DNA of 64,000 nucleotides, from assembly GCA_963738405.1 (NCBI GenBank), contig CAVTWJ010000009.1, positions 224,001 to 288,000 of the forward strand. Reading direction: 5' to 3'. Positions 40,623 through 59,402 of the stretch are shown here, piece after piece. Position numbers and translations under genes: made by a program. Below the pieces are notes generated by a model, which did no database searches, was not told where the DNA came from, and saw only the letters and a list, made by a program, of their open reading frames with translations. This DNA comes from a candidate division FCPU426 bacterium (GTDB lineage: Bacteria > Oederibacteriota > Muellerivitia > Muellerivitales > Muellerivitaceae). Positions within the stretch are counted from its first letter, which is position 1, and each line of letters begins with the position of its first letter.

Positions 40623-42098
40623 CTATAAGAAGACCGTTCCTGAAATTTCCATGCCGTCCAATATTCCCCCATTGGCCGAATTCTGCAGGTCCGTCTGTTC
40701 CCCCACCCAAAGTCTCAAATCACAGGCCCAATTGGTATCCTCCCAGCCTAAGCCTGTGTTCAATGTCACGAGAAGGTCTTGAAAGTTCGAGACCTGGAAA
40801 TATTGGTCATCCTCGGCGGTCAGGCCAAGCCGGTAAGCCAGATGTTCATTCAGCCACCTTTCCCCCCCGAGGGTGAATTGGAAATAGTTGAAGTCGGTCG
40901 AGATGGTGGTGACCGCGGCGGCGATGGCCGAATGGTCCAGGGTGTAATTCAGGCTCGAAAACTGGATTCCCAGGGTGTAATCGTGGATGGCTTCCACGCC
41001 CACCCCCAAATTCGTCAAGACCTGTTGGCGGTTGATGTTGTCGGTGACGTTGAGGCCCGTGCCAATATCGTCGGTGTTGTTGAAAAAGGAGGAAATGAAC
41101 CCGCCGATTTTAAGGTTTTCACGTCCCGAGAGGGGAAAGGACAAGCGGAAACTGCCCGTGGCATTCATGGATTGGTATTGAGAAGAATGAAAAGAGTTGA
41201 CGTTGGGGTAATCGGTGTTGGTTTGGGAAACGGTCCTCGCGAAATTGGTGTCGTCATAGATCATGAAGTAACTGAAGCGCAGGATCATCTGGTGGGGAAC
41301 CTCGTATCTGAGTTCGGGCCCGAAAAAGTAATAATCCGAAAGGGTATTGTTTTGCTGAAAGCTAAAGGGCCCGCCGCCTGGAAAAACCAAGCTGGTATTG
41401 AGGATGTTGGTCCCGCCCGCGACCTGGGCCTCAAATACCCCTCCAGCCTGCCAAAAGGCATCGTGGGGCCCCCGCTTTTCGGGGAAGGTCGAAAGCAATC
41501 CGGCCCTGATGAAGGTTTGGTTGAGAGCGCTGGAGCCCGATTGGAGCGAATAGGGATTGCCCGTGATCTTTCCATATTGATAGACACCCTGGTCAAAGGC
41601 GTTGTCCGATTCCATGTTGCGGATTTCCAACCCTAGGGCCAAGGGCCCGAGGCTGACCGCCCCCCGCAGGAGGCCCCGGTATTGGGAAGCGGTGAAACTA
41701 TCGAGAAAATTGTTCCCCGTTTGGCCCGTCTGGGAAAGAAAATCCCCGCCCGCCTGGAAGGCCAAGCCGGGTGAGGGAAAGGCCATTAGCCCTGAGTAGT
41801 GGATATCGTTTTCATTGGCCAGCCAGGGGATGGAACCGGTCGTTTGCTGGAAGGAGCCGGGCTGAACCGGCTGGCTGTTTTGCTGTACCCACTGGAAGGC
41901 CGCATCCAAGCGGTCATGGGTGTCCAATAGGACAAGGCCGGCCGGGTTGCCGTCCATGAAAAAGCTCAAGTCGGTGGTTTCGTCCGTCAGGATAGTCGAC
42001 AGGCCGCCGGTGGCTTGAACGCGGGTTTCGGAGGGAAAACAGGGCTGGGTCAGGGCTGACAAAATCAATATTCCCGCAAACCCAAAAAGCCTTTTCAC
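40623..42098 (-). CDS. Putative outer-membrane beta-barrel protein
   Basis: GTG 42098 after GGAGGG RBS, signal peptide, GNPAGL, alternating strands, C-terminal GTVFL. Confidence 0.7.
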   Translation of the reverse strand: MKRLFGFAGILILSALTQPCFPSETRVQATGGLSTILTDETTDLSFFMDGNPAGLVLLDTHDRLDAAFQWVQQNSQPVQPGSFQQTTGSIPWLANENDIHYSGLMAFPSPGLAFQAGGDFLSQTGQTGNNFLDSFTASQYRGLLRGAVSLGPLALGLEIRNMESDNAFDQGVYQYGKITGNPYSLQSGSSALNQTFIRAGLLSTFPEKRGPHDAFWQAGGVFEAQVAGGTNILNTSLVFPGGGPFSFQQNNTLSDYYFFGPELRYEVPHQMILRFSYFMIYDDTNFARTVSQTNTDYPNVNSFHSSQYQSMNATGSFRLSFPLSGRENLKIGGFISSFFNNTDDIGTGLNVTDNINRQQVLTNLGVGVEAIHDYTLGIQFSSLNYTLDHSAIAAAVTTISTDFNYFQFTLGGERWLNEHLAYRLGLTAEDDQYFQVSNFQDLLVTLNTGLGWEDTNWACDLRLWVGEQTDLQNSANGGILDGMEISGTVFL

Positions 42099-42230
42099 AA
42101 TACCCTCCACGGCGGGTTTCCCCGCCTCCGTTAGATAGCTTCCAAAACTCCTCAAGTGCCCCCTGGGCGGGTAAAGTATATCCTTGGAAGAGGGCAGGTT
42201 GGGATACGTTTTGGCGTTGAAATACATTAA

Positions 42231-42374
42231 CAGGGCGCTAAAAAGTGTTTTCAGCGCCCTGTCGACAGCCATGGGTTTGAACGAGCCACAAAAAAAAGGT
42301 TTTTATATTCGTGGCTCGTTCCTAAGTATGAAAAAGTCCAAAAAGTCTAATCTGTGGACTTTTTCAACAACCTG
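42231..42374. mobile_element. Putative MITE with imperfect TIRs and TTAA flanks
   Basis: TTAA|CAGGGCGCTAAAAAGT ... ACTTTTTCAACAACCTG|TTAA; three internal hairpins; no transposase. Confidence 0.55.
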
Positions 42375-42519
42375 TTAAAATACTCCTGTCACGGGGTGAA
42401 AGTTTTTAAGTTTGCGGCACTTCACCAAACTTTTCGAGAGGGCGGGTTGAAAAAAATCCAAAGGATGTTTTCGCCTCAGCTCTTTTCTCTTTTGTCCAAT
42501 ACCTCGTCTGAAGGCATGA

Positions 42520-45500
42520 ATGAAAACCAAAGCTGTTAAACCGGTCCGGTTCGGAGACCGGATCGAACTTGAAATTACCTCCCTGGCCTTCGGGGGGGAC
42601 TCGGTAGGGCGGTACCAGGACTTCGCGATTTTTATTCCCGGAGGTCTGCCTGGGGAAAGGGTGACGGCCCAGATCACCCAGGTGAAAGACCAATTCGCCG
42701 TCGGGAAAATCATCGGGTTCACCCGCCGTTCCCCCGACCGGGTGGAGCCGCCCTGCCCCATTTTCGAGGAGTGCGGGGGCTGCCATTGGCAGCACTTTCA
42801 ATATCCCCGTCAGCTTCAGGCCAAGCGGCAGTTCCTGGTCGACTCCCTGGAGCGCATCGGCAAACTCACGAACGTCACGGTCCAACCCTGTCTTCCCTCG
42901 CCCTCTTCCTACCATTACCGCAACAAGGCCATGCCGGTTACTTCCATGCGGGACGGACATTTCGTGGCGGGCATTTTCGAGCCCCGTTCCCACAAGCTGG
43001 TGCCCTACCAAAACTGTCCCATCCAGGCTGACGCCATCAACGAGCTAATCCAACAGGTGTTAAGGAAGATCGACCGCTCCGGCTTGACGCCCTACCAGGA
43101 AAAATCCCACACGGGATTCATGCGGCACCTGGCCGTGCGCAAGGGCGAGAAAACAGGGGAAATCCTTTTGGCCCTGGTCACCCGAACCGAAATTCCCGAA
43201 GAAAGGGTTCAAACGCCCGATGTGTCCTTGGAATCCCTGCCCGAAATTCTTCCCCGTCTGGCAAAGGAACTGATGGCGGAGGTGCCTCACCTGGTGGGTG
43301 TTTTGCAAAACGTCAACCCCTCCAGAACCAACATCGTCTTTGGGTCCACGACCCGCGTCCTGGCGGGCCGGGACCATTACTTCGAAGAGCTCGACCATCT
43401 GAAGCTGAAGGTCTCGCTGCAATCCTTTCTCCAGGTGAACACCCTTCAGGCCGACCTGCTGCACGAGGTGGTGCGGGAGGCCCTAGGGCGCCCGGAAAAC
43501 GGCGGAAAATGGCAGACGGTTCTGGACCTTTACAGCGGTATCGGCACCCTGGCCCTGGCGGTATCCAACGAGTGCGAATATGTGGTGGGCATCGAGGAAG
43601 TGGGCCCCGCGGTGGAGGATGCCAAGGCTAACCTTTTATTAAACCAGCGGGACAACATCGATTTTTTAGAAGGCGACGTCTCGCAGGTCCTGTTGGGATT
43701 GAAAGAAAAGGGGCTGACCCAGGTGGACGCGGTCATCGTGGATCCTCCCCGCAAGGGCGTGCTGCCCGAGGTTTTGGCCCGGGTGGGAGCCTTGCGGCCC
43801 CAGCGGATGGTCTATGTCTCCTGCGATCCTTCCACCCTGGCGAGGGATTTGGCGCTTTTGGCCAAACACGGCTACGAGGCTGAATGGGCGCAGCCACTGG
43901 ATATGTTCCCCCAAACCTACCATGTGGAGACGGTGGTCCGGCTGACCCGCACCGTGCCCAGGGAAACGATCGATGGATATTCCACCGGTGAAAAACTGGA
44001 ACCCTTCCGACTTCCCCGGGAAGCGGACGCCATCCCAAGCACTTCCTTCATCCAGAACAGCGTCAAGTTTTTAGGAAAAGGGATTATGAGCTTAAGCCGG
44101 GCCCTGAGGTCGGGATGGGCCAAGGCGAGTAAAAACATGACCCGGGCGAACCAATGGGCCGGGAAGGTAGTGGAAAAGTTTAATCCTGCGCGCCCCATGG
44201 AAGAACCCGTGAAGTTGATCCAAGAACCCCCATCTCCTCTTCCTGAACCCAAACCCGTTATGGACCATGAGGAGGCCATCCGGCGGTTTTTGTGGGGTTC
44301 TATCCAGGAAGAGCAATTGACCCAGACGGCTCCGCCTCCCGCCATTTCCATAACCCAAGCCCTAGAACCCGATCCCGTTGTGGAGGATTTTTCGGAAACC
44401 GTCCTTGTTAAGTTCGCCACCATTGAGGAAGCCCTGGAATCCGCCATTCAAGATGAGGCGCCCGAACCGGCGCCCGTTTTAACCATCGAACCAGCCGCTG
44501 TTCCTTCGTCAGCGGCGGAAGAACCCAAACCGGCTGTCTCGGAGGATATGTTTTCGAGGATGGTTTTGGATGGAACCCTTGATTCCAACAGGGCCCAAGA
44601 ACCCATTTCTGAAATGGCAGTCCCTGATAAGCCGGTTTTTAAAAGTGAACTGTCTGGGACGAACCTGGAATCGCAATTTTACTTCCCGACCTTCAAGGCC
44701 CTTTACGCCGCGGCCCAATCCTGGTTGCGGGGGGAAGGGGTCATTTGGGCCTTTTCGTCCCGCCGAATTTGGGGCGCCGCGGGAGCCCTTTTCGGGCTCT
44801 TTCTTTTGGTTTTCCTGGCCAAGGCCACCTTGACGCCCCTCGTTTCCCAACCCGCCATTCCCTTGAAAACCCTGTCCCTGGAAATTCCGGATGTGGTGGC
44901 CTTGATGCCCAAGGGAAGTTACTTGCGCTATGAGATGGTCCCTTTCGAGCTCAAGGTCGACTCGATGAACTACAAGCGTTTCCAAGAAAGCCGCGCCTAT
45001 GTGGAAGTCTTGAGAGACGGAAAACCGGTGACGATGGTGGACGGCCAAACCCGGATGGTTTTGGGAAAGGAATCCGAGGGAAGAAAGTTTTTCGGGAACT
45101 GGCCCATTCCCTATAACCCCCCGCCCGGCACCTATTTGGCCCAGGTGACCCTGGTGGATCCCGAAAGATCCAACCCCCGCGTCTTCCAATCGGCCTTCAC
45201 GATTCCGCCCCTCCAGCCTTCCGGACTGGAACCGGGTTACGCGGTCCTGACCATGGAGGGGGGGAAACAACTGATTAAGGGCGCTGTCCCTTCTTTGGAT
45301 GAAAACGGGGCCATGAGCACCGCAAACGCCATCGATTGGGCCAAGTTCATGGGCGCCAATGTTTTTTGCAACTTGGTGGCCGAAACCGCCATTTGGGACC
45401 GGTTTTACCCGGAGGACTTTCCCTTCAATCGGGAAGAAATGGAAAACGGGCGCAAATACTCCAGCGCCGCGCACTCGGCAGGGCTTAAGTACGCGGCCTA

Positions 45501-46707
45501 CATGACCACTTTCAAAGTCGGCGGGGACGGCTGGCAGCAGGCACCCTACGAATTTTCCTTAGGGTATGACCTCAGCACGGATCAGGTGATCCAGACCCGA
45601 TTCATTTCATTGGATGACCCCAAACGGCAGCAGGACATTTTGGATTTCCTCCAGGCCATGAACAAGGACAACACCGTGGATTACGTGGGTTTGGATTACG
45701 TCCGCACGGGTTTCGCGGGTTATGAACTGGTGGATGAGTTCGTGAAAGATCTGACCATGACCCTGCCGGAGGGGTTCGACAAGATGGCCGAGCCCGATCG
45801 CATCCATTGGCTGGCTCGCACTGTGGAGCATAAAGAGGACAAGCAGGTGGTGGCCCTATTCGAGTGGTGGAGGGCCCACAAGGTGGCCACCATCCTGAAA
45901 AAAATATTGGACGAGGCCAAGATGACCAAGCCCGTTTTCACCTTCACCCTGGGCTGGGAAATGGGGCATCAGCACGGACAGGACCCGGCCATGCTGGTGG
46001 ACGCCGGCATCAACTTCAACCACATCATGCTTTATGAGGGGGACCGCAGCACTATCGAGGACATGAAACACCACTGGCCCAATTACCTTTCACGGGAAGG
46101 CGGTATGTACGTTCCAGGCGAGGAGGTCGATTTCAACATGGTCCAGAAAAGCCTGGACCCTCCCGCGCCCGAGGAGCTTTATAACCGGGAGGTGGAAACC
46201 TTCAATCTCTGGTATGGCTTGAACGCCAACCTGGGAATGTTTTGGCACGACCTCTACCGCCTGGTTTGGGGCGTGAGGGGGCCCTATTCCCGAATGGAGT
46301 GGGCGATTTCGGGAGGGAAAGCCTTCACGACCCTCCGGCAGGCCGAGGGACTGCTGCCGGTAGAGGTGAATTTGATCGCGCCTAAGGAAGCTCCGTTGGG
46401 GGTTTCGGTGCCCCTGACAGTGGACATCCATAACCATTCGGACCACATGATCAAAGGGCTTGTCTTGCGCCAGCTGGACGCCACCAAGGATTTTTACAGC
46501 ACCCTCGCCACTGTGGGGCCCTTGGATGTCTCGCCCGGGATGGTCGTGCGGGTGAAAAGTCTTTTTGTGAACCTGCCAAAGGAAGCCCAGCCCGAGAGGG
46601 ACAATCAAAACATGGCGGCCATTTTGTTGGAAACGCCGGATGACTCGATCCACGCTTTTGATTTTGCCTACCTCAAGGGCCAATCGGGACGTAAGTCCAA
46701 ACCCTAG
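42520..46707 (+). CDS. rlmD: RlmD-like 23S rRNA m5U methyltransferase fused via linker and TM to a putative glycoside-hydrolase-like domain
   Basis: TRAM domain, CPIFEECGGC, FLQVN, DLYSGIG, VDPPRKG, YVSCDPSTLARD, DMFPQTYHVE in the first ~475 aa; TM near aa 750-770; DYVGLDYVR in the C-terminal domain. Confidence 0.85.
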   Translation: MKTKAVKPVRFGDRIELEITSLAFGGDSVGRYQDFAIFIPGGLPGERVTAQITQVKDQFAVGKIIGFTRRSPDRVEPPCPIFEECGGCHWQHFQYPRQLQAKRQFLVDSLERIGKLTNVTVQPCLPSPSSYHYRNKAMPVTSMRDGHFVAGIFEPRSHKLVPYQNCPIQADAINELIQQVLRKIDRSGLTPYQEKSHTGFMRHLAVRKGEKTGEILLALVTRTEIPEERVQTPDVSLESLPEILPRLAKELMAEVPHLVGVLQNVNPSRTNIVFGSTTRVLAGRDHYFEELDHLKLKVSLQSFLQVNTLQADLLHEVVREALGRPENGGKWQTVLDLYSGIGTLALAVSNECEYVVGIEEVGPAVEDAKANLLLNQRDNIDFLEGDVSQVLLGLKEKGLTQVDAVIVDPPRKGVLPEVLARVGALRPQRMVYVSCDPSTLARDLALLAKHGYEAEWAQPLDMFPQTYHVETVVRLTRTVPRETIDGYSTGEKLEPFRLPREADAIPSTSFIQNSVKFLGKGIMSLSRALRSGWAKASKNMTRANQWAGKVVEKFNPARPMEEPVKLIQEPPSPLPEPKPVMDHEEAIRRFLWGSIQEEQLTQTAPPPAISITQALEPDPVVEDFSETVLVKFATIEEALESAIQDEAPEPAPVLTIEPAAVPSSAAEEPKPAVSEDMFSRMVLDGTLDSNRAQEPISEMAVPDKPVFKSELSGTNLESQFYFPTFKALYAAAQSWLRGEGVIWAFSSRRIWGAAGALFGLFLLVFLAKATLTPLVSQPAIPLKTLSLEIPDVVALMPKGSYLRYEMVPFELKVDSMNYKRFQESRAYVEVLRDGKPVTMVDGQTRMVLGKESEGRKFFGNWPIPYNPPPGTYLAQVTLVDPERSNPRVFQSAFTIPPLQPSGLEPGYAVLTMEGGKQLIKGAVPSLDENGAMSTANAIDWAKFMGANVFCNLVAETAIWDRFYPEDFPFNREEMENGRKYSSAAHSAGLKYAAYMTTFKVGGDGWQQAPYEFSLGYDLSTDQVIQTRFISLDDPKRQQDILDFLQAMNKDNTVDYVGLDYVRTGFAGYELVDEFVKDLTMTLPEGFDKMAEPDRIHWLARTVEHKEDKQVVALFEWWRAHKVATILKKILDEAKMTKPVFTFTLGWEMGHQHGQDPAMLVDAGINFNHIMLYEGDRSTIEDMKHHWPNYLSREGGMYVPGEEVDFNMVQKSLDPPAPEELYNREVETFNLWYGLNANLGMFWHDLYRLVWGVRGPYSRMEWAISGGKAFTTLRQAEGLLPVEVNLIAPKEAPLGVSVPLTVDIHNHSDHMIKGLVLRQLDATKDFYSTLATVGPLDVSPGMVVRVKSLFVNLPKEAQPERDNQNMAAILLETPDDSIHAFDFAYLKGQSGRKSKP

Positions 46708-46773
46708 CGGATGTACCTAATTTCCCGCCGACCCCTTGATGATGAGGGTCATAGTGGCCAAACCCTTTAAAGT

Positions 46774-46798
46774 TAAAACCCTTCATGAAAGGGTTTTA
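46774..46798. promoter_or_regulatory. Palindrome upstream of the lipoprotein/porin operon
   Basis: TAAAACCCTT-CATGA-AAGGGTTTTA. Confidence 0.5.
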
Positions 46799-46926
46799 CT
46801 GAGATTGGAAAAGTTCAAGCGTTTTAAAAGTTACATGGCTGTTCCTTGAAAAAAAAACTAACGTCCCTCTCGGCCTTTTAGTAAAATACCCCGGCTTTGC
46901 TCCTTTATCCCCCGCACGAGGTTGAT

Positions 46927-47694
46927 ATGTTTTCCCCGAAACTGAACGCCTTGCTGGGGCTCTTTTTGGTTTTTCTCCTGGCCGGATGCGGAGCGGTTTT
47001 CATCAATCCCGGTTCTTCCCAATCCTCCCTGCGCGAGGGCCTTTCCAACCCCGATCTCAACAAGGTAAAGGTCGCCGTTCCCCACGACCAATCCGTGATT
47101 TGCAATTTCGATGATGGCACCAAAAACACCAATTCCAAACTTTATGGGAAATCGGGCGGAACCTGGTTTGATTTTTCCGAAGGGGGCAATGTCCCGAACG
47201 CGGTTTTTATCGTTCCGGGAGGCGCCAACGGCTCCGCCATGGCCGCCCATATTTTCGGCTCCTTGACGGATAAGGGTGATAAGTCCTATCCCGCCTTCTC
47301 GATTCAGGGCAAATTCACCGCCAGCGGCAACTACGACGCCAGCGCCTTTAACGGAATTCAGTTTTATTACAAATGCCCTGCGGACGACCAGGCCGTCAAA
47401 CGCCGTTTTGTCATCGCCACGGTGCCCACCCTGCCCTCTGAAAACGGCGGAACCTGCGTTTCGGACTGCTACAACCATTTTGGGGCCATGATGTCCCAAA
47501 CCAACGATTGGAAACTCTGTTCCTATAAGTTCACCGAATTGACCCGGGAACAGGGGTGGGGTTCTCCCGTAACCCCCCCCGATTTGATCGACCACCTCAA
47601 GGAATTCGTCTATTTAGAATGGGACCAAAGCGGGGACAACAACGCCGGGACCTACGCGATTGATTATTGGGTGGATGAGGTCGAATTTTTCTAA
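46927..47694 (+). CDS. Lipoprotein with CBM11/CIA30-like domain (paralog 1)
   Basis: Lipobox LAGC; ICNFDDG, YDASAFNGIQFY, GGTCVSDCYNHF, YWVDEVEFF. Confidence 0.75.
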   Translation: MFSPKLNALLGLFLVFLLAGCGAVFINPGSSQSSLREGLSNPDLNKVKVAVPHDQSVICNFDDGTKNTNSKLYGKSGGTWFDFSEGGNVPNAVFIVPGGANGSAMAAHIFGSLTDKGDKSYPAFSIQGKFTASGNYDASAFNGIQFYYKCPADDQAVKRRFVIATVPTLPSENGGTCVSDCYNHFGAMMSQTNDWKLCSYKFTELTREQGWGSPVTPPDLIDHLKEFVYLEWDQSGDNNAGTYAIDYWVDEVEFF

Positions 47695-47703
47695 GATCTT
47701 TGA

Positions 47704-50451
47704 ATGTTGTTTGATCAACTTGAACCCAAGGGATGGATTTTGAAAATCAAGTTTTCAATCTTTTTGGCGGTGTTAACGGGGTGCGGTGTTTTATTGCCGA
47801 CGGGCCGTCTTTGGGCCAACCCTTATGAGGAAGTCACCTCCGATGAGGCGGTTTATCAAAGGGTCAAGCACCTGGAGACCTACGGCCTTTTGGATCCTAC
47901 CGACCAGCAGGTTTTGGATCAGGGAAAAATCGTTACCCGGATGGAACTTGCCTTTTATACCGAAAAGGCCAAGGCCCGCATTGAGGCCCCCATGTTAGGC
48001 CCCGCGCCAGTCCCCGGTGCCCTAACGGTCCCGACACCCGAAATCACCATTCCCTCTAACCTTGAGGTTTTGCCGCCTACGCTTCCGACCGCCACCCCGG
48101 TTTCTGCCGCTCCCACCCCTGCCGTGCCCGAGCCTGTGGTTCCCTCGACTCCCGAAGTTCCCACGGCTATTCCGACCCTGGCGCCCAACTATCCCCCAGC
48201 CGCTAAGGCCGAAATTGAGCAGCTTTTAAAAGAACTCAGTGACTCCACCCAGATTTTAAAAACCCGTTTGGCCTTGGAAGACGAACGCTTGAAAGACCGG
48301 GAAGCGGAATTGGAAAACCTCAAAACCGTTCAGGATGACGTGGATAGCGTCTGGAAAAAAGCCAACAAATCGGTGGGGATTCCTAATTTCAACACCAATA
48401 CCAATACCCGCTTCGAGAATTTGAACATCTCCGGCATCGCCTCGCAAAGCGCCACCAAGATTTTGCAGGAAGCCTGGGTGGGCATGTACACCGATTTAGG
48501 GGGCGTGGGCACCCTTTCCACCGGCTTCGGCATGATCCTTCCCTTCGATAATTACTCGGCTAAGGTTCAGGTGGCGGGCGTAGGAACAGCCCCGGCTTCC
48601 ATCTACCTCGGCAACCCGAGCGCCAACTTCCACCTTTACGGCGACTTGGGCAAGTGGGACACCACCTTCGCGGTGGAATGCTACCAGCCGGACACCACCT
48701 TCGGGCCCTTCAGCCGGGGCATCGCCAATACCGCCATCAAGCGTTTTGAGAACCCTTTTGACATCAAAAACTTCAACGACGACAAGAACGCCAAAAACTG
48801 GGACGACTACATGTCCCAGGTCAGCTATGTCCCCGCCTACTCGGCCAACGCGGGAAACGTGCAATCCGCCAGCGACCGGGTGTTTGACGGCATGTACGCG
48901 ACAGGGCGGCAGGTGCCCTGGCTGGGGCCGGACGGGCGGATGACTTTTATGGTGGGCCGCATGGGGGAAACCCCGACCCAAACCCAGCGGTGGGAAGAGG
49001 GCCTGAAGATCGACCAGCCCTGGGCCGACAGCCTGGTGCGCACGTCGGTGGCTGTAGAATGGATCAATGACAATTTCGGGGTCGTGCAGCCCCTTCAGCC
49101 CCAGTTGGATTTGAAAGATTACGAAGCCGATATCCACTTAAACCTGAACGCGGTGCAGGTGGACTTCGACGGCGGATTCTCTCATTTCTATACCGGCTCC
49201 GAAATAGCGGGGCCCGTTTACCTGAACACGGGCAACGCCATCGTGGACAACAGCGCTATCGAGTCGGGCGCGGGCCAGGCCTCCATCGCCTTTTACCCCT
49301 TCACGCTTTTTGGGTTCGCCATCGGCGACACCTACGCCGATTACCAAAGCAAGGTCACCATGAGCGGGCTTAACTTTTTCCATTACGGACTCTATTTCAA
49401 TCCCAGTGATTTTAACGACGTGTACGGGGCCATCGGGGAAGTGGACAATCTTCAAACCGACCGATACGGCTGGCGTTTCAACTTTGGGTGGAATGGGCGA
49501 AAACAAGAGTTCATGAAAAAGTGGCCGTCTTTCCTGGATGGTATCGTGATCAACTTGGATGTGGCGCAAAAGTCGGAATTCGTTTCCGTTCAAGACCCCA
49601 TGGGCTACAACACCATCGAGCCCTCGCAATTCTTAAGTTTTTACTACCCCGACGACGAGGGTCTTTGGGGCTTGGATATGTGGGGAAACTATTCTCCCAA
49701 CGTCAACCCGATCCGTCAGGACTACATTAACAACATTCAAAGCCTAAGAAACGACGGGGATATCTTGAACGATGACGCAAGGTACCAGTTCCGCATGACC
49801 TCCGAGCGCCTCCCCTTGATTCTTCCTATCTATAACAACGGCGGCACCCTCAGCCTCGCCCCCGCCAACCCGAACCAGGCCCCCGCCACCTACACGAGCG
49901 GCCTTTCCAAGGGCTACAACGAGTACGCTAACCTGCAGGATCTTAAAAGCTACAACTACATCACCCTCACCACCAAGCTCAAGGTGGGGCAATGGTTGAA
50001 TTCAAATCCCCTGGATCTTTCCTTCTTCATGACGATCAACCAGGTTTCCGCCTCCAGTTCCAACGCCTATAGCTACTTGAACCCCAACCTGGCGGGCTCC
50101 GCTACAACAGCCTCCCCGGGCTCCCCCTCTTCCACCTCCCCCTCGGTTTTTTCAGACAATATCCCGAACCTTTTCACCCAGCAGGTGTTTGACGGCGCCA
50201 TCATGATTAATGTGGTTAAAGACCTGGATTTGATGGGCGACATCGGCGTGGAAACCTGGAACTCCAATTACACCTACCCGCTAGTCAATTACCAAACCAA
50301 CGCCTACGGCCTCGGATTCGCATGGGACCTTCCCTGGGGCGGCGGCAAGATGGAATGGCGATATAAACATATCGATTTCGCGGACGCCTACGTGCCCGCC
50401 AATGATTATTCGGGCGACCAGTTTTTCACCAAAATTAAATTCATGTTTTAA
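47704..50451 (+). CDS. SLH-like / Pro-rich / coiled-coil / beta-barrel outer-membrane protein 1
   Basis: Signal peptide, YQRVKHLETYGLL...VTRMELA, Pro-rich linker, heptads, C-terminal KIKFMF. Confidence 0.7.
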   Translation: MLFDQLEPKGWILKIKFSIFLAVLTGCGVLLPTGRLWANPYEEVTSDEAVYQRVKHLETYGLLDPTDQQVLDQGKIVTRMELAFYTEKAKARIEAPMLGPAPVPGALTVPTPEITIPSNLEVLPPTLPTATPVSAAPTPAVPEPVVPSTPEVPTAIPTLAPNYPPAAKAEIEQLLKELSDSTQILKTRLALEDERLKDREAELENLKTVQDDVDSVWKKANKSVGIPNFNTNTNTRFENLNISGIASQSATKILQEAWVGMYTDLGGVGTLSTGFGMILPFDNYSAKVQVAGVGTAPASIYLGNPSANFHLYGDLGKWDTTFAVECYQPDTTFGPFSRGIANTAIKRFENPFDIKNFNDDKNAKNWDDYMSQVSYVPAYSANAGNVQSASDRVFDGMYATGRQVPWLGPDGRMTFMVGRMGETPTQTQRWEEGLKIDQPWADSLVRTSVAVEWINDNFGVVQPLQPQLDLKDYEADIHLNLNAVQVDFDGGFSHFYTGSEIAGPVYLNTGNAIVDNSAIESGAGQASIAFYPFTLFGFAIGDTYADYQSKVTMSGLNFFHYGLYFNPSDFNDVYGAIGEVDNLQTDRYGWRFNFGWNGRKQEFMKKWPSFLDGIVINLDVAQKSEFVSVQDPMGYNTIEPSQFLSFYYPDDEGLWGLDMWGNYSPNVNPIRQDYINNIQSLRNDGDILNDDARYQFRMTSERLPLILPIYNNGGTLSLAPANPNQAPATYTSGLSKGYNEYANLQDLKSYNYITLTTKLKVGQWLNSNPLDLSFFMTINQVSASSSNAYSYLNPNLAGSATTASPGSPSSTSPSVFSDNIPNLFTQQVFDGAIMINVVKDLDLMGDIGVETWNSNYTYPLVNYQTNAYGLGFAWDLPWGGGKMEWRYKHIDFADAYVPANDYSGDQFFTKIKFMF

Positions 50452-50456
50452 CGGAA

Positions 50457-52763
50457 TTGAGAACATTGAGACCCAAAGCGCTGTTTAAAAAAACCTTCAC
50501 CGCCGCCTGGCTCCTTTTGGGGCTGGTCCTGCCCGCTTGGGCCGAGCATGGCCGTTTGGCCACGACCCAACGCGACCCTTGGATCAATGCGGCGGCTGAA
50601 AACCTGATTTTGTCCGGTATGGTTGCCGACCCCGGCAAGAATCCCGATCAGATGACCAACCTGGAAATGGCCCAATTGACCGCCAAGGCCTCCCAAATGA
50701 TCATGGCCCAGGCCGACCCAAACCTCCTGCCGATCCCCCTGGACGTCGATCCCGGCCTTCCCGAGCCCACCCTGCCCGCCGCTCCGGCGCCGGCTCCGGT
50801 TTTAAGCGCCGCCGCCATGCCGGATCAGGTGGTTCCCTCCAAAAATCTGCAGCAATTGGTGGAAGAGTTCGCGGAGGAACTGACGGCCATGGGGCTTCAG
50901 GTGGACCAGATTGAGCAGCGCCTGGATGACGCGGAAATCCGAAATGAGGTATTCGCCGCCCTTCAGAAAAAATACCTGACCCAATCAGGAACCGAAGTGG
51001 GCGGGGAATCGCGCGGTTTCATGTATCAGTACCGGGGCTTCGGCACCAACGCCGCCTATCCGGCGATGGACTATAACGCGGCCATCTACATGCAAATGGA
51101 CCTTCGAAGCGTGCCAGTCCCCGACGTTCTTTTTAACGTCAGCTTCCGGTTCTGGCGATCGATCGGTATGTACTACCAGGATCCGATCCAACCCAATTAC
51201 CAGCTGCGCTGGTTCAGCCTCGCTGGCTATGGCGACGCGGCCACCATCACGGGCGGTGATTTTTACAAGAGCTACACGCCCTTCACCCTTTGGAACGCCA
51301 ACACCCCCGTTTATACCCTGATCGAACCGACCTCCTTTAATCGGGTGCGCAACGACCAGGAGGATCTTCTTTACCTCAACCATGGAACGGACTGGAAACT
51401 CCGGGGCTTTCACGGGGCCGTGGGCCAAGCCTGGGGCACCAGTTGGGACTTGAGCAGTTATAACGTAGATACCATGGTGGGGGTCATGCAGGACCCGGGC
51501 GACAACATCGGAGCCATCAGTTTCGGCAATTATTTCGCGGGGAGCCAGGCATCGCTCGGGTTCCTCCAGCAGAATCTTTTTCTGGGAGCTACGGGCCTTC
51601 TGCTTTGGCAGGATTCGGGCAGCGCCAATGTGCCTTATTTCCCAGACTATCCGGATAATTACGCCAAGCAATACCAGGTGGGAAGCGTTTGGTCCAAGGC
51701 GGGCATTCCCTTCGATGAAAACGTCAAGCTGACGGGCGCTTTCGAGAGCGCCTTCAGCCAATATGACGACGATTCCAGCGACGCCAACAAGACTTTCCAT
51801 GATTGGGCCCTTTCGGCGGAAGGCGCCCTGGAAGTCTACGGGCTGAAGCTCTCGGCCAAGTACTTGAACGTGGGTCCCTACTTCTATTCCCCCGGCGCCC
51901 AAGCTAACCGCTATTCCCCCGACTCCGCGGCCCAGGGTTATTTGACCACCAACCTAACCGGATTGGATGACGGCGCCCCCGGGCTTCTCAACCAAAGCCC
52001 CTTCCAGGGTGTGAACCGCCCCTTCTTCGCCCCCTATGACAGAACCGCCGAAAATATTCTTCCCTACGGGGATGCCACTCCCAACCGCCAGGTTTTCAAG
52101 CTGGGTCTTTCCGGAGCCGTGGGGGAGAGGGGCTGGCTCCAACCCAAGGCGTCGGTGGTCATCAACGCCCAAGAAATAGCTCCCAACTATGTTTTAAATG
52201 CCTTGGGCATTGGCTCGATCCCCGTGGATAGCCAAACCAACACCACCGTGGGCCGGACCTTCGGTGGGTGGGAGGGCGCCCTCGCTTTGGATTTCGCAAA
52301 GATGGCGAACCTGCCTGGAAAAACCTACGACGTCCAATTCGACTATAAAAATCAAACCACCGATTTAGGCATCGGCGCGGCTCCCTTTACCTCGAATACG
52401 ATCATCGGCGGCGCGGATTTTAACATTCCCGTCCGGGCCCTTTCTTCCCTCGTTTGGTCGGCGGCCTTTGAGCAGGTTCAAAGCACCGGCAGCGAATACG
52501 TTTTGACCGGCCAAGGCAATCCACCCGATTTGGGCCAATATGTTTTTTACGTGGACCCCTATTCGGCCACCAGCACCATTCCCCAATTCACCTACCAGGC
52601 CTTGAATTTGACCCGGCAAACCTGGGCCTTCGGGGTGAAATATCCCTTGAGCAGCCTCGTGAATATCCGCATGGATTGTTTCTTTACCAGCTACAACTGG
52701 GCCGACCAACCCTGGGACCGTAATGATGAAATTTGGAGATTCACTTATGAAGCCCATTATTAA
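50457..52763 (+). CDS. SLH-like / coiled-coil / beta-barrel outer-membrane protein 2
   Basis: DPW...ENLILSGMV...MTNLEMA, LQQLVEEFAEELTAMGLQVDQIEQRL, C-terminal FTYEAHY. Confidence 0.72.
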   Translation: MRTLRPKALFKKTFTAAWLLLGLVLPAWAEHGRLATTQRDPWINAAAENLILSGMVADPGKNPDQMTNLEMAQLTAKASQMIMAQADPNLLPIPLDVDPGLPEPTLPAAPAPAPVLSAAAMPDQVVPSKNLQQLVEEFAEELTAMGLQVDQIEQRLDDAEIRNEVFAALQKKYLTQSGTEVGGESRGFMYQYRGFGTNAAYPAMDYNAAIYMQMDLRSVPVPDVLFNVSFRFWRSIGMYYQDPIQPNYQLRWFSLAGYGDAATITGGDFYKSYTPFTLWNANTPVYTLIEPTSFNRVRNDQEDLLYLNHGTDWKLRGFHGAVGQAWGTSWDLSSYNVDTMVGVMQDPGDNIGAISFGNYFAGSQASLGFLQQNLFLGATGLLLWQDSGSANVPYFPDYPDNYAKQYQVGSVWSKAGIPFDENVKLTGAFESAFSQYDDDSSDANKTFHDWALSAEGALEVYGLKLSAKYLNVGPYFYSPGAQANRYSPDSAAQGYLTTNLTGLDDGAPGLLNQSPFQGVNRPFFAPYDRTAENILPYGDATPNRQVFKLGLSGAVGERGWLQPKASVVINAQEIAPNYVLNALGIGSIPVDSQTNTTVGRTFGGWEGALALDFAKMANLPGKTYDVQFDYKNQTTDLGIGAAPFTSNTIIGGADFNIPVRALSSLVWSAAFEQVQSTGSEYVLTGQGNPPDLGQYVFYVDPYSATSTIPQFTYQALNLTRQTWAFGVKYPLSSLVNIRMDCFFTSYNWADQPWDRNDEIWRFTYEAHY

Positions 52764-55389
52764 TACCCAGCGCCGAATCGGCGCCCTGGTTTTCCTTTTC
52801 GCCCTGGGGTGGGCCTTTTCCGCCCTCGCGTCGGATACTTTGTTTTCTGTGGTGCCCGCTGGCGATGCCACCTATATGAAGCTGGGCCAATTGGAAAAGG
52901 CAGGTCTTCTGAACCCAGGAGATTCCCAGGGACCCTTAACCCGATTTGAAGTGGCCCATCTGATCAACAAGGCCCAAGGAAATATGTACGGCATTGAAGT
53001 GGCGCAGTTAGATGAGATCCCGCCGCCTCCCGATTCGGGGGCTCCCGCTCCTCCGTCTTCTTCTCCGGCACCTGCAGCCGCTCCCGCGAACGCGGCCCCT
53101 GCGCCTGTTGCCGCCGCAGGCGATGACTCCAGCATTCCGCCCCCGCCTGACTCTGGTACCGCCGCTTCCCCGGCCGCTGCCCAACCCGCGCCTGCTCCGG
53201 CTCCCGCCGCCCCAGCTCCCTCGGATGCCACCCTGCTTCCACCCCCGGATATGGGCGCGGCTCCAGCGATACCATCCCTTCCGGACACTGGCACCGCGCC
53301 ACCTCCGCCCCCGGCTCCCGATACCACGGCGCCCGCCGTTGCCGCCCCGGCCGCTCCAGCGCCTGCTGAGGCCACGGCAGTCCCGACCCCTTCAGCGACC
53401 CCGGAAGATCCAATGAAATGGGCCAAGTTGGCTGAGACCCTCAATAGCCTGGAGGACGCCTACCAGTATGAATTGAAAGACATCAAGGCGCCGGTCAATG
53501 ACCTCAACGACAAAACCCAGGCCCTGGAAAACGGCCAATATGACCTTTTGAAAAGGCTCAAAGGCATCGATGAATATCCCACCATCACCTGGCATGGCAT
53601 CGGTAGGGTCTTCGGGGCCGCCCAGCGTTTCACCAGTTCAGACCCGGGCTATACCCCTCCGCAAAACGATAATTTCCAGGGAAGAGGCTATATCGATTTC
53701 GAGCCCGTGGGCGTCATCGGCAAACAGATTCGTTGGGAATTGATCGTGCGTTACGGGACGGCCATGGTGGCCAATGATTCCCAGGCCATAGATAGCTTCC
53801 TACCCCGCCGGGGAACCATGGAACTCAAGACCCCCTGGTTTAGCGCCACCTTTGGGGATTTCGATGAGTCCTACACGCCCCTGACCCTTTGGAACCGTAA
53901 CAACCTAGATTTGCGCTGGGTTCCGGAAATGATGGCGCGGGAAGACGACACCTTGAAGTATGAGAGCTTCATGAACAACGAACCCAATTGGCCTTTTAGG
54001 GGCCTGCGCCTGGGTACGGAAATCGCCTGGCCCGACTCCACCTGGTTTGACCATTTCAACCTCTCCCTTATGGGAGATATTTTGCGAAACGGGTACAACG
54101 ACCTTTCCAGCGGGGGCAACTATTTTGGTCCGGGATTCTTCACCGACTATCTCTTCGCCGGAAAAACCCAATTGGCTACCAAGAGGCTTTTTCTAGGCGG
54201 TAACAGCAGCCTGAAATTTTCCTTTGACGCCTATGGGTTATTGTTATGGGAACCCATCTCAAGCCAAATGCCTGGAAGCCCCTACACGCCTTACGGCCCC
54301 ACCAATTGGGCCCACCAATACCAGATCTTCAGCTTGAAGCCTTCTTTCGAGGTATCCATGGGAGACGGTGTAGTGTTGGGCGGGTCCTGGGAAAGCGCGG
54401 GTTCGCTTTACGAGGATGATTCCCAAAACAGCACATCGAACGTGACCGATTGGGCCTTCATCGCGGGACCTTACTTGAAACTCGACCATTCCATCCTCTC
54501 CTTCAATTACCTGAACATCGGCCCGAATTTCTTCTCCCCCCTGGCCCAGACCCGCCAGGACGGGGTAACCACAGCGTTAAGCTTCAACCCCGCTAGCGGC
54601 CTGCCCACACCGGAGCTTTTTTCAGCCCCGCTCCGAAGCCAGTTTTTCCTTGCCGGGGTGCCCCGGGCCAACGATATCTTTTCATTCTATGACCGCACTG
54701 AAGACAATACCTTCCCCTATGGCTTGGCTACCCCCAATCGCCAAGGCGGGGGCATGGAATTGGACATCAAAACGTTGGAAAAAGACGCTTTTAAGATCAA
54801 TGGCTCGGTTTACTTCGTTCAGGAAATCGGTGGTAACCTTGTCTCGAGCTCCGGTGTGAACGGGTTCGTTGCCGTGGACGCCCCGGTGACCGCGACCATT
54901 CCGGTGCGTAATTTCACCTACGTGAACATTGGGCCTTCCATCAACCTGGGCCCCTTCATCGATGATCCGGAAGATTTGGTGATCGGGACGAACGTACGCT
55001 TTGAACAAACCAACAGCTCCATCGGAACCCTCACCAGCGTTTGGGCCTTGGGCGGGGTAGAAGCGGGCTTGTTTTCTTGGTGGCACACGGCCCTGTCTTT
55101 CGGGGTGGATAACGTGAGCGGATCGGAAGCGGGTTACAACGGAACCACGATGGCCCGGTATTCATACCTATTCAACAACCAGGATTTGGGACTTTACCAG
55201 CCTTTTACCATCAACGGCACCAATAACAGCCTCCGGCTGTCGACGGCCTTTACATTGAATCGGAACTCCAAGCTGTACCTGGATTACGATTACACCTTTG
55301 GCAACGCGGTTCCTTATTTCGGCACGACCCCCAACGGGGGCAACCTGAACAACCAGTTCGCGGAGTTAACTTATGAAATCCTCTTCTAA
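52747..55389 (+). CDS. SLH-like / Pro-Ala-rich / coiled-coil / beta-barrel outer-membrane protein 3
   Basis: FSVVPAGDATY..L.QLEKAGLL...LTRFEVA, about 130 aa Pro/Ala linker, C-terminal LTYEILF; GGAG RBS before ATG 52747. Confidence 0.75.
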   Translation: MKPIINTQRRIGALVFLFALGWAFSALASDTLFSVVPAGDATYMKLGQLEKAGLLNPGDSQGPLTRFEVAHLINKAQGNMYGIEVAQLDEIPPPPDSGAPAPPSSSPAPAAAPANAAPAPVAAAGDDSSIPPPPDSGTAASPAAAQPAPAPAPAAPAPSDATLLPPPDMGAAPAIPSLPDTGTAPPPPPAPDTTAPAVAAPAAPAPAEATAVPTPSATPEDPMKWAKLAETLNSLEDAYQYELKDIKAPVNDLNDKTQALENGQYDLLKRLKGIDEYPTITWHGIGRVFGAAQRFTSSDPGYTPPQNDNFQGRGYIDFEPVGVIGKQIRWELIVRYGTAMVANDSQAIDSFLPRRGTMELKTPWFSATFGDFDESYTPLTLWNRNNLDLRWVPEMMAREDDTLKYESFMNNEPNWPFRGLRLGTEIAWPDSTWFDHFNLSLMGDILRNGYNDLSSGGNYFGPGFFTDYLFAGKTQLATKRLFLGGNSSLKFSFDAYGLLLWEPISSQMPGSPYTPYGPTNWAHQYQIFSLKPSFEVSMGDGVVLGGSWESAGSLYEDDSQNSTSNVTDWAFIAGPYLKLDHSILSFNYLNIGPNFFSPLAQTRQDGVTTALSFNPASGLPTPELFSAPLRSQFFLAGVPRANDIFSFYDRTEDNTFPYGLATPNRQGGGMELDIKTLEKDAFKINGSVYFVQEIGGNLVSSSGVNGFVAVDAPVTATIPVRNFTYVNIGPSINLGPFIDDPEDLVIGTNVRFEQTNSSIGTLTSVWALGGVEAGLFSWWHTALSFGVDNVSGSEAGYNGTTMARYSYLFNNQDLGLYQPFTINGTNNSLRLSTAFTLNRNSKLYLDYDYTFGNAVPYFGTTPNGGNLNNQFAELTYEILF

Positions 55390-56293
55390 ACGGCGAAAAA
55401 GCCTTTTAGGCAAAAAAAACGCCAGGCCCGTTTTATTAGGCTTGGGGCTTCTTTGGGCTGTGGCCGCGGGATTATTAGTGATCATCGGCTGCCAAAACAG
55501 CATCCCCCCCCTGGGAACCTATGGAGCCCCTGTTTCCCAGGTCAACCGAGACTTGGTGGCCGATTTCAGCTTGAACGGATTAATTCCCTATAACACCCCT
55601 TCCGTCTTGCCCGTCCAATCCATTACTGGGCCTGTACTTGACAGCACCGGCAAACCGGTATTGAGCTACCCGATCAATCCCAACCTCTTTGAAAACAACA
55701 ACCCGCCTACCTACACCATCAAAAACCAGGGCGCGGTGACGCTCCTCAACAATTTCGCGGCCTACCTTAATTTCTTTTCCTGGGGGCTTTACGGCCCCGG
55801 GGCCAATGGGGCCCCTTACGGTTACCGTGTTTACGGCACCGTGACCGACAAGGGGGACGCAGCCTTCCCCGAAATGGACATTTGCGCTTACATGGAATCG
55901 GGCGGCGCCTTCTATGACGCCAGCAACTTTACCGGGGTCGATTTCTATCTTAAGGTCGCCAGCGACGACACCTGCCTGGAACGGCATTTCGAGATACCGG
56001 TTTTCCAAACCACCGCGCCGACGGAAGGGGGAGGATGTCAGGCCGGGCCCCACCTTTGCTCGGACCATTTCTCGGCCGACGTTACCTCGGGCACCGGCGG
56101 ACAGTGGGAATTCTTCAGGTATAACTTCAGCGACTTGAAACAGCTGGTGCCAGGGGCCATTCCCGATCCACCCACCTTGAGTGGAAACAACCTCAAGCAG
56201 ATGATGTGGCTGGTATGGATGGGGGCCCGAAACAACAAGGCGGGCACTTCCACCGTGGACATTTCGGTGGATGACGTGGAATTTTTCAAATAG
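55373..56293 (+). CDS. Lipoprotein with CBM11/CIA30-like domain (paralog 2)
   Basis: IIGC lipobox-like; G.VTDKGD, YDASNFTGVDFY, GGGC...CSDHF, ISVDDVEFF. Confidence 0.72.
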   Translation: MKSSSKRRKSLLGKKNARPVLLGLGLLWAVAAGLLVIIGCQNSIPPLGTYGAPVSQVNRDLVADFSLNGLIPYNTPSVLPVQSITGPVLDSTGKPVLSYPINPNLFENNNPPTYTIKNQGAVTLLNNFAAYLNFFSWGLYGPGANGAPYGYRVYGTVTDKGDAAFPEMDICAYMESGGAFYDASNFTGVDFYLKVASDDTCLERHFEIPVFQTTAPTEGGGCQAGPHLCSDHFSADVTSGTGGQWEFFRYNFSDLKQLVPGAIPDPPTLSGNNLKQMMWLVWMGARNNKAGTSTVDISVDDVEFFK

Positions 56294-56345
56294 TGATAAA
56301 CTTTTAAAGAAGGGCCCAAGGGCGTTTTGGGCGGGAGGCGTCTCA

Positions 56346-59343: not shown

Positions 59344-59402
59344 GTTTCTTCTTTGTAGGGATGATTGTTTTTAGGTGAATATCTCGGTGAAAAGGATTTG
59401 TG

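Follow-up and report, generated by a model that had tools for sequence, protein, structure and literature searches.

In a 64,000-nucleotide (nt) stretch of DNA from a candidate division FCPU426 bacterium (assembly GCA_963738405.1, contig CAVTWJ010000009.1, forward-strand positions 224,001 to 288,000; hereafter the window, numbered from its first letter), a single open reading frame (ORF) of 1395 codons joins an RlmD-type 23S rRNA methyltransferase to a long C-terminal tail that is predicted to be exported. The frame starts at an ATG, runs on the + strand and contains no internal stop, as the first-pass annotation of this DNA had already described. rRNA methyltransferases are regarded as soluble cytoplasmic enzymes. 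We lean, with modest confidence, towards a two-part precursor that consists of a cytoplasmic RlmD head and an exported tail probably freed by signal peptidase I; export, cleavage, the substrate and the independent working of the two halves are what we infer, whereas the analysis shows the ORF itself, its conservation, the intact RlmD residues, the tail fold and the signal-like make-up of the membrane segment. The only 5-methyluridine (m5U) methyltransferase gene of a whole bacterial family would then form the head of a secretory precursor. If this is true, either ribosome modification takes place on a membrane tether, or an internal signal peptide splits a two-enzyme precursor, and either would be unusual. 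The frame is organized as follows (aa, amino acid positions; AF2, AlphaFold2; dN/dS, ratio of nonsynonymous to synonymous substitution rates; pLDDT, predicted local distance difference test; SAM, S-adenosylmethionine).

42520..46707, + strand: whole fused ORF (P0001), 1395 aa; ATG start, one-frame homologues of 1243-1542 aa in related genomes
42520..43953, + strand: RlmD module, aa 1-478, with TRAM domain, Fe-S-binding central domain and SAM methyltransferase domain (TIGR00479, Pfam and PDB matches)
43954..44754, + strand: linker, aa 479-745, Glu/Pro/Ala-rich and mostly disordered (identity, dN/dS and pLDDT)
44755..44826, + strand: internal signal-peptide-like segment, aa 746-769, with n-region SSRR, a 17-residue h-region and A767-K-A769, followed by T770
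44893..45216, + strand: Ig-like beta-sandwich, aa 792-899 (AF2 strands 13-116 of the tail query; weak MG2 and Transglut_C matches in relatives)
45220..46356, + strand: (beta/alpha)8 barrel, aa 901-1279, glycoside-hydrolase-like (structure matches; conserved residues at strand ends)
46360..46683, + strand: C-terminal beta-sandwich, aa 1281-1388 (AF2 strands 502-609; weak NPCBM_assoc and CARDB matches in relatives)

The RlmD head and the conservation of the fusion

The head was assigned by independent family models and by comparison with solved structures. The NCBIfam model TIGR00479, an RlmD equivalog, matches aa 24-470 over model positions 3-432 of 432 with 394.4 bits, against a cut-off of 183.55. 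Pfam places a TRAM domain (PF01938) at aa 12-64 (E 3.8e-10), where the AF2 model shows a beta-barrel at residues 14-69, and a tRNA_U5-meth_tr domain at aa 301-477. The pLDDT of the module is mostly above 90. The best solved relatives are RlmCD of Streptococcus pneumoniae (5xj1; E 7e-69) and RumA, the RlmD of Escherichia coli (1uwv, E 6.7e-38; also 2bh2), both of which have the same order of TRAM, central and SAM methyltransferase domains as the query. RlmD methylates U1939 of 23S rRNA, and the candidate target of the query is U1939, or also U747; known RlmD and RlmCD proteins are soluble and of about 430-460 aa. By contrast, the query adds 917 residues that make up the linker, the signal-like segment and the exported module.

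The residues expected for iron-sulfur binding and catalysis are in place.

42754..42783, + strand: Cys79-x5-Cys85-x2-Cys88, three of the four putative Fe-S cysteines; Cys in 52-53 of 53 fused relatives
43015-43017, + strand: Cys166, fourth putative Fe-S cysteine; Cys in 52-53 of 53 fused relatives
43822..43824, + strand: Cys435, putative catalytic nucleophile (YVSCDPST); 53 of 53 relatives, aligned with the ISCN motif of 5xj1
43927-43929, + strand: Glu470, putative general base; 53 of 53 relatives, aligned with the HVE motif of 5xj1

The cysteine motif CPIFEECGGCHWQH spans aa 79-92 and YVSC spans aa 432-435. Cys79, Cys85, Cys88 and Cys166 are presumably the counterparts of the RumA cluster ligands, and RumA likewise has the Cys-x5-Cys-x2-Cys motif with a fourth Cys, the catalytic Cys and the Glu. 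Asp336, Gly340, Gly342, Asp408-Pro-Pro-Arg411 (the DPPR motif), Cys435 and Glu470, a set that covers SAM binding and catalysis, align to 5xj1 and are each kept in all 53 relatives. The earlier description of the head as a complete RlmD, with TRAM domain, Fe-S cysteines and YVSC, is thus borne out by TIGR00479, by Pfam and by the conserved residues; the motifs quoted in it were all located in the 1395-aa protein at the places given, and only the end of the hydrophobic stretch had to be corrected (see below). The head resembles a working RlmD and looks active, as a putative 23S rRNA m5U methyltransferase.

Apart from the fused gene, no m5U-methyltransferase gene was found in this genome. The fused frame is the sole match to PF05958 in this assembly (G000, 90.66% complete), as it is in G025 (97% complete) and in G004 and G006, both 99% complete and in 5 contigs. 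In other families of the phylum, stand-alone RlmDs have 459-497 aa and end 5-10 residues past the HVE motif; therefore, all that follows residue ~478 belongs to the fusion. No family match was found in Pfam or NCBIfam for aa 480-1395. A 'Rhomboid' match at 0.19 over the hydrophobic segment was set aside as chance.

A search with the tail (aa 780-1395) against proteins of 767-2442 aa gave 60 matches, of which 54 carry an RlmD Pfam domain, with a tail identity of 45-87%. Three others (P0030, P0035 and P0039) are N-terminally truncated, with their first residues in the end of RlmD, in the linker or in the signal segment; the remaining three are distant stand-alone forms with 29-30% identity. The fusion in one frame was found in independent assemblies from ncbi, jgi, ena and lgn, and the source annotations of the relatives, where a name is given, read 'RlmD' or 'hypothetical protein'. 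In the family of this genome (f1), a single open, stop-free frame is present in 29 of 30 other genomes searched (23 of 24 in a smaller survey). Frames of 1278-1542 aa account for 26 of the 30 f1 matches when this genome is included, and the other four are short frames (345-1153 aa) on small contigs. The sister family f2 has a fused frame of 1243 aa.

A survey of 99 genomes of the phylum, with a tail match threshold of E <= 1e-20, revealed no internal stops in the f1 and f2 matches. The tail occurs once per genome in 77 of the 99, and is a frame of 594-754 aa in 44 of these 77, which belong to 15 families; fused-length frames are confined to f1, f2 and a third family, f9. Genomes that encode RlmD and the tail separately have the two genes far from each other or on different contigs, and there is therefore no adjacent pair in which a stop could be lost. 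The first-pass annotation had offered two explanations of the frame, and they fared differently: the retention of the one-frame fusion across f1 and f2 refutes the idea that a stop codon was lost recently, and it supports, together with the signal peptides or lipoboxes of stand-alone tail-family members, a real architecture that combines a membrane segment with an extracytoplasmic glycan-type module. The comparison of these sequences indicates that the fusion is genuine and old.

A tree of the tail (LG+G4, 40 rows) was built from 10 fused f1/f2 sequences, 2 fused f9 sequences, 22 stand-alone sequences (1-3 per family) and 6 outgroup rows from metagenome-assembled genomes (MAGs) with other phylum labels. 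Family f9 is sister to f1+f2 with a support of 85 in the Shimodaira-Hasegawa-like approximate likelihood ratio test, and these two groups have the longest inner branches of the tree; the stems of the fused C-modules measure 0.84 and 1.09. A single origin of the fusion for f9 and f1+f2 is possible from this topology.

The two halves are much better conserved than the linker that connects them. Among 53 full-length relatives, identity to the query per 25-residue block is 0.34-0.84 in both halves, and 0.08-0.15 in the linker (0.37 at block 476-500), with gaps of 15-57%. The linker spans 82-401 residues among relatives, and in the query contains 11.2% Glu, 10.9% Pro and 10.9% Ala. Within the genus its amino acid identity is 35-36% with a dN/dS of 0.31-0.41, and its insertions and deletions are whole codons; the corresponding dN/dS values are 0.055-0.089 for RlmD and 0.05-0.08 for the tail (0.05-0.09 across both domains), all of them rough ratios because dS is high. 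An AF2 prediction of aa 1-620, based on 48 aligned sequences, places residues 510-554 in one long helix (pLDDT 52-69) and predicts disorder from there on, with pLDDT below 50 at 555-581 and 591-620. Two features were identified close behind the head.

44005..44013, + strand: Phe-Arg-Leu (FRL) motif, aa 496-498, in EPFRLP; FRL in 47 of 53 fused relatives, nearly invariant in the alignment
44056..44118, + strand: amphipathic basic helix, aa 513-533, inside the predicted helix 510-554; moment 0.64, mean hydrophobicity 0.05

The FRL motif is absent from the stand-alone RlmDs of the phylum, which stop before it. At the position of the amphipathic helix, ~25-70 residues after FRL, 19 of the 53 relatives have a strongly hydrophobic segment. 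This second hydrophobic segment (P0006, P0008, P0014, P0015, P0041 and 14 others) lies at residues ~520-585 and reaches Kyte-Doolittle 19-mer values of 1.67-2.61.

The signal-peptide-like segment and the tail module

The query itself has a single hydrophobic peak, with a Kyte-Doolittle 19-residue maximum of 2.09 at residue 757. The hydrophobic stretch that the first-pass annotation had pointed out is present as IWGAAGALFGLFLLVFLA (aa 750-767); it covers nt 44767-44820 and does not extend to 44825. Its interpretation as a transmembrane helix needs correction: the segment is built like an internal signal peptide that can be cleaved, with a basic n-region, a short h-region and an A-x-A site, which makes a permanently tethered tail doubtful. 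The 53 relatives have 1-4 Lys/Arg in the 8 residues ahead of the h-region. The h-region, judged against what we take to be typical lengths for signal peptides, comprises 14 residues in 35 of the 53 (median 14, range 14-19) and is often Gly-rich, compared with 17 residues in the query. Position -1 is Ala in 52 of 53 relatives, and position -3 is a small residue in 52 of 53 (Ala 46, Gly 4, Ser 1, Val 1). Position -2 is variable, with Lys in 33 of 53, and Thr-Leu-x-Pro follows downstream of Ala -1. The segment is located at residue 746 of 1395, and not at the N-terminus of the precursor as in classical Sec signal peptides. Signal peptidase I probably cuts after Ala769, given the conserved A-x-A site, and the genome has one candidate for this enzyme, as lepB (59400-60104) is its only PF10502 match. 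A search of the literature on bacterial internal signal peptides cut by signal peptidase gave no precedent, and a search on RlmD fusions and transmembrane RlmD gave no description of such a fusion.

The structure of the tail was predicted by AF2 (model m6669319ff896; 616-aa query, alignment of 62 sequences) with a pLDDT of 94.4 and a predicted template modelling score of 0.93. The model consists of an Ig-like sandwich, a (beta/alpha)8 barrel and a C-terminal beta-sandwich, in agreement with the Ig-like part and subsequent TIM-barrel-like part proposed from the sequence. The nearest structures to the barrel (GH, glycoside hydrolase; rmsd, root mean square deviation) are the following.

E. coli PgaB C-domain (4p7q), GH153: Z 23.6, rmsd 3.7, 310 aligned
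Clostridioides difficile Cwp19 (5oq2), GHL10: Z 22.4, rmsd 4.1, 302 aligned
Bordetella BpsB (6au1), GH153: Z 21.8-22.0, rmsd 3.9-4.1, 303-307 aligned

Cwp19 ranks first in a Foldseek-independent search of 48,161 chains, ~1.7 Z above beta-amylase. The next-nearest barrels form a continuum of GH35, GH14, GH42 and GH5 enzymes at Z 17-21. Whole-model Foldseek places GH66 dextranases and GH13 enzymes first with TM-scores of ~0.3, a ranking that is taken to reflect a similar three-domain layout only, and language-model look-alikes of the tail belong to GHL10, DUF4434 and GH66. A profile of the family gave no significant barrel match against the sequences of solved structures; its best match is the C-terminal sandwich of GH20 lacto-N-biosidase (E 4.7e-4), followed by GH29 (0.039). 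Weak, sub-threshold GHL10 matches were obtained for 6 of the 62 tail-family members (best E 0.002).

Conserved residues of the tail cluster at the strand ends of the barrel, and the candidate catalytic centre lies in the first of the two motifs quoted in the first-pass annotation, DYVGLDYVR (aa 1054-1062, nt 45679-45705); the second, FWHDLYR, corresponds to aa 1241-1247 (nt 46240-46260).

45694..45699, + strand: Asp1059-Tyr1060, end of barrel strand beta4 (GLDYVR), candidate catalytic centre; Asp in 59 and Tyr in 51 of 62 members

At least 80% of the 62 members keep Glu913, Asp1059-Tyr1060, Arg1062, Glu1069, His1152-Gly-Gln-Asp1155 and Asp1161, as well as Tyr1172, Gly1200, Asp1204, His1243-Asp1244 and Arg1247. 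According to PMC5765458, the GHL10 active-site set comprises in Cwp19 Asp196-Tyr197 after beta4, Tyr297 after beta6 and Gly328 in beta7, together with an aromatic residue at beta8 and a conserved Arg; the tail centre also parallels Asp466 of PgaB as described there. The parallels in the tail are Asp1059-Tyr1060, Tyr1172, Gly1200, Phe1241/His1243-Asp1244 and Arg1036, matched to this set by position and not by residue-level superposition.

The tail and Cwp19 (PF02638; 5oq2/5oq3) thus share the barrel, at 12% identity, and the Asp-Tyr after beta4, the Tyr at the end of beta6 and the Gly in beta7 correspond in position; Cwp19 is secreted and the tail is predicted to be so. The two differ in that the tail barrel is flanked by Ig-like and beta-sandwich domains and that of Cwp19 by CWB2 repeats, and in that the tail has additional conserved HGQD...DAG and HD motifs. 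The C-domain of PgaB and BpsB (GH153, a poly-N-acetylglucosamine hydrolase; 4p7q, 6au1) is the best fold match and is a periplasmic barrel that acts on an N-acetylglucosamine (GlcNAc) polymer. In contrast to PgaB and BpsB, with which the tail has 6-9% identity, the query lacks a CE4 deacetylase domain; the stand-alone tail gene lies beside lepA, alaS, dtd or sppA rather than in an exopolysaccharide operon, and no pga genes were found among the scanned neighbours, which are LacI, LepA or without family. A further comparison is provided by DigH (YddW) of E. coli, which we take to be a GHL10 protein. DigH acts in the periplasm as a glycosyl hydrolase and belongs to the same broad group of barrels; no sequence-level link to the tail was shown, and no GHL10 match above the cut-off was found in this genome. 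PMC12288456 and PMC6016235 report DigH as a division-site hydrolase specific for denuded glycan strands and Cwp19 as a peptidoglycan lytic transglycosylase, respectively. A housekeeping cell-wall role as for DigH would fit the single-copy, core-gene neighbourhood of the tail family. Because of the Cwp19/PgaB fold, the residue parallels to GHL10 and the reported activities of Cwp19 and DigH, our preferred reading of the tail is a hydrolase of envelope glycans whose substrate would be peptidoglycan or a GlcNAc polymer.

The tail family has no Pfam model. In an exhaustive HMMER search, 203 representatives (50% identity) were recovered at E <= 0.001, 120 of them at E <= 1e-30; most have 600-750 aa, and they come from source MAGs labelled Elusimicrobiota, Goldbacteria, Firestonebacteria, Edwardsbacteria and others. 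As a single-copy gene for an envelope protein near lepA/lepB, it is a candidate for a core cell-wall enzyme in several uncultured phyla. The stand-alone relatives begin with signal peptides, lipoboxes or signal anchors, and the tail therefore belongs outside the cytoplasm. In P0059, P0102, P0106, P0116 and P0125 (816-855 aa), an N-terminal signal anchor is followed by a low-complexity stalk of ~200 residues and then by the Ig-like domain; membrane-anchored versions of the tail thus exist without RlmD.

Readings of the fused frame

In the two-part precursor that we favour, aa 1-478 would fold in the cytoplasm as an active Fe-S- and SAM-dependent 23S rRNA m5U methyltransferase, followed by the weakly constrained linker of ~270 residues with its FRL motif and membrane-seeking helix. 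Residues 746-769 would act as an internal Sec signal and send the last ~625 residues across the inner membrane. A cut after Ala769 by signal peptidase I (lepB) would free the tail in the form of its stand-alone relatives, and the exported three-domain tail would most likely cleave a glycan of the cell envelope, be it strands of peptidoglycan or an exopolysaccharide of GlcNAc type. After the cut, RlmD would be held at the membrane by the signal peptide, or be released if the signal peptide is degraded. Bitopic bacterial proteins combine a cytoplasmic enzyme head with an extracytoplasmic domain, and viral polyproteins are cut at internal signal peptides. The fused protein resembles both in having its head in and its tail out by way of one hydrophobic segment, with a possible signal-peptidase cut, and differs from the bitopic proteins in that its head is an rRNA-modifying enzyme and not a kinase or an anti-sigma domain.

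Several observations weigh against this account. The 17-residue h-region of the query could equally serve as an uncleaved anchor, and some stand-alone tail relatives appear to be anchored rather than cleaved. If the second hydrophobic segment spans the membrane, a simple N-in/C-out topology fails for the 19 relatives that have it, and the conserved FRL motif hints at a function of the junction. With regard to the proposed activity, the two top fold matches stand just 1.5-2 Z above other GH barrels, and the query has no match to GHL10 (Pfam PF02638, gathering threshold 27.9 bits) at E <= 1. Finally, the fused proteins of family f9 have kept a head that appears catalytically dead, which is hard to square with a mere passenger and favours a role in cis.

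The f9 proteins (L029:1885-5370, 1161 aa; L105:120-3527, 1135 aa) have an RlmD-like domain that leads straight into the signal segment and then the tail. Their head aligns to the f1 RlmD profile at positions 9-475 (hhalign probability 99.3, E 8e-21) and retains the TRAM domain and the Cys-x5-Cys-x2-Cys motif. Cys435 is replaced by Glu, DPPRKG by HSRNEK and HVE by GMRC, and the SAM motif is also lost; no PF05958 match was found in either f9 genome (83% and 89% complete). Between the two genera, the head shares 67% amino acid identity and has a proportion of nonsynonymous differences (pN) of 0.21, compared with 0.16 in the tail; only these two measures are quoted because the synonymous proportion (pS) is saturated (~0.745). 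The f9 head is a candidate pseudo-enzyme, and provides a natural experiment on other uses of the RlmD fold. A further protein, P0070 (1102 aa), has an N-terminal region of ~440 residues with a TRAM-like start, then a membrane segment, and a match to the tail over residues 496-1012. It may represent another fusion that has decayed further; its similarity to the RlmD profile is not significant (hhalign probability 4%, E 0.0099), and we do not count it as a third lineage with the fusion.

An alternative, which we regard as rather unlikely, is an uncleaved bitopic protein whose ends are functionally coupled. In this scheme the RlmD-type head, on the cytoplasmic side of the membrane, would recognize RNA or pre-ribosomes or else respond to the redox or iron state, and would control or position the periplasmic glycan hydrolase through the linker, or the reverse, so that ribosome biogenesis or growth state would be linked to envelope remodelling. 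The f9 proteins, which retain the fusion and a conserved head despite their lost methyltransferase motifs, speak for coupling, as do the FRL motif, kept by 47 of the 53 relatives, and the membrane-seeking helix immediately behind the head, the persistence of the fusion across f1 and f2 without a separate RlmD copy, and the long stem branches of the fused C-modules (0.84 and 1.09), which suggest changed constraints after the fusion. However, the conserved A-x-A site and the 14-residue, Gly-rich h-region of most relatives suit cleavage better than a signalling helix, and a poorly conserved linker of 82-401 residues that is predicted to be disordered would be a poor conformational transmitter. 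Moreover, both domains resemble ordinary, complete stand-alone relatives, and we know of no system that couples an rRNA methyltransferase to a periplasmic enzyme, nor did the literature searched yield one. A cross-membrane device in which the RlmD-derived, RNA-binding Fe-S head reads the state of ribosome assembly or redox and governs the outer glycan hydrolase in cis, as its main role in f9, seems to us improbable.

It is very unlikely that the frame yields two products and that the fusion is largely formal, with an internal start such as the ATG at 44086 (Met523) giving the exported protein alone. This ATG, to which the first-pass annotation had drawn attention, is indeed in frame and has AGGAAAAGGG 4-13 nt upstream, and the Met-Met-Lys-Arg with which the f9 signal segment opens resembles a retained start codon. 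Nevertheless, the Met523 column is mostly Ala, Ser or gap (12, 10 and 7 of 53), and an independent product from 44086 is therefore not a feature of the family; Met540, Met560 and Met581 are likewise unconserved, and the query has no Met between residues 699 and 796, hence no start near the signal. The linker frame is open in all relatives, with whole-codon insertions and deletions and a dN/dS below 1, and a scan for promoter-like sites within 42200-47000 found 0, with 1.8 expected. We give almost no credence to an artefact, by which two genes would have been joined through an error in sequencing or assembly or through a stop codon lost only very recently. Its sole basis is the unusual architecture, set against normally soluble RlmDs of about 430-480 aa and the 459-497 aa of the stand-alone forms of the phylum, and it is contradicted by the same fusion in independent assemblies, in 29 of 30 other f1 genomes and in f2, at tail identities of 45-87%, and by the lack of an adjacent RlmD/tail gene pair in families with separate genes. 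Reads of a DNA run (X1, share of words 0.07) gave one 151-nt contig at 43761-43911 and none over the junction.

Gene neighbourhood and minor features

The fused gene lies upstream of a lepA-lepB pair on the same strand and carries a ribosome-binding motif and a hairpin at its borders.

42510..42514, + strand: GAAGG, Shine-Dalgarno-like motif 5 nt upstream of the ATG, read directly from the sequence
46775..46797, + strand: hairpin AAAACCCTT-CATG-AAAGGGTTTT, 68 nt past the stop codon, read from the sequence and not listed in the terminator scan
57428-59227, + strand: lepA (Pfam), 10.7 kb downstream of the fused gene
59400-60104, + strand: lepB, signal peptidase I (Pfam), 12.7 kb downstream of the fused gene

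Six + strand ORFs of 265, 915, 768, 888, 306 and 335 aa, with no Pfam match, occupy 46897-57278 between the fused gene and lepA-lepB. The whole fused clade shares this block in synteny, and loci in which lepA comes straight after the tail gene lack it. The earlier view that the fused gene sits directly before a downstream operon holds insofar as the synteny is conserved within the family; a gap of ~190-220 nt and the hairpin separate the two.

Among 53 loci of more than 9 kb, 22 have the stand-alone tail gene immediately 5' of lepA (18 counted by script, and four minus-strand loci, L099, L100, L103 and L104, added from coordinates). The identity of lepA was confirmed by Pfam in L023, L026, L028, L034, L039 and L040, and lepA was assigned by tblastn in 16 further loci; the neighbour scan by Pfam covered 53 of 108 neighbour ORFs. 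The gaps between the tail gene and lepA are 8-276 nt in plus-strand loci, and lepB comes next in L026. The exported GH-like gene and lepA-lepB look like a conserved gene string. In L027, L030, L052 and L061, from Elusimicrobia-labelled and similar MAGs, the tail gene has alaS, an SLOG (LDcluster4) gene and/or dtd upstream and sppA (Peptidase_S49) downstream, with a small intervening ORF without Pfam match in L052 and L061; dtd encodes a D-Tyr-tRNA deacylase, and sppA a signal-peptide peptidase.

The scan of 42200-47000 that included the promoter search found 8 terminator-like sites with 8.4 expected, which is chance level. The motif CTGTTAAAC occurs once in the window (42533-42541) and was likewise discarded as chance, as at least one copy appeared in 29 of 100 shuffles. 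Upstream of the fused gene, a divergent ORF of 549 aa without Pfam match lies at 40623-42272 on the - strand. Its first codons contain a 16-pair, G+C-rich hairpin (42229-42263, - strand) followed by T-rich sequence, an odd site for a terminator-like element.

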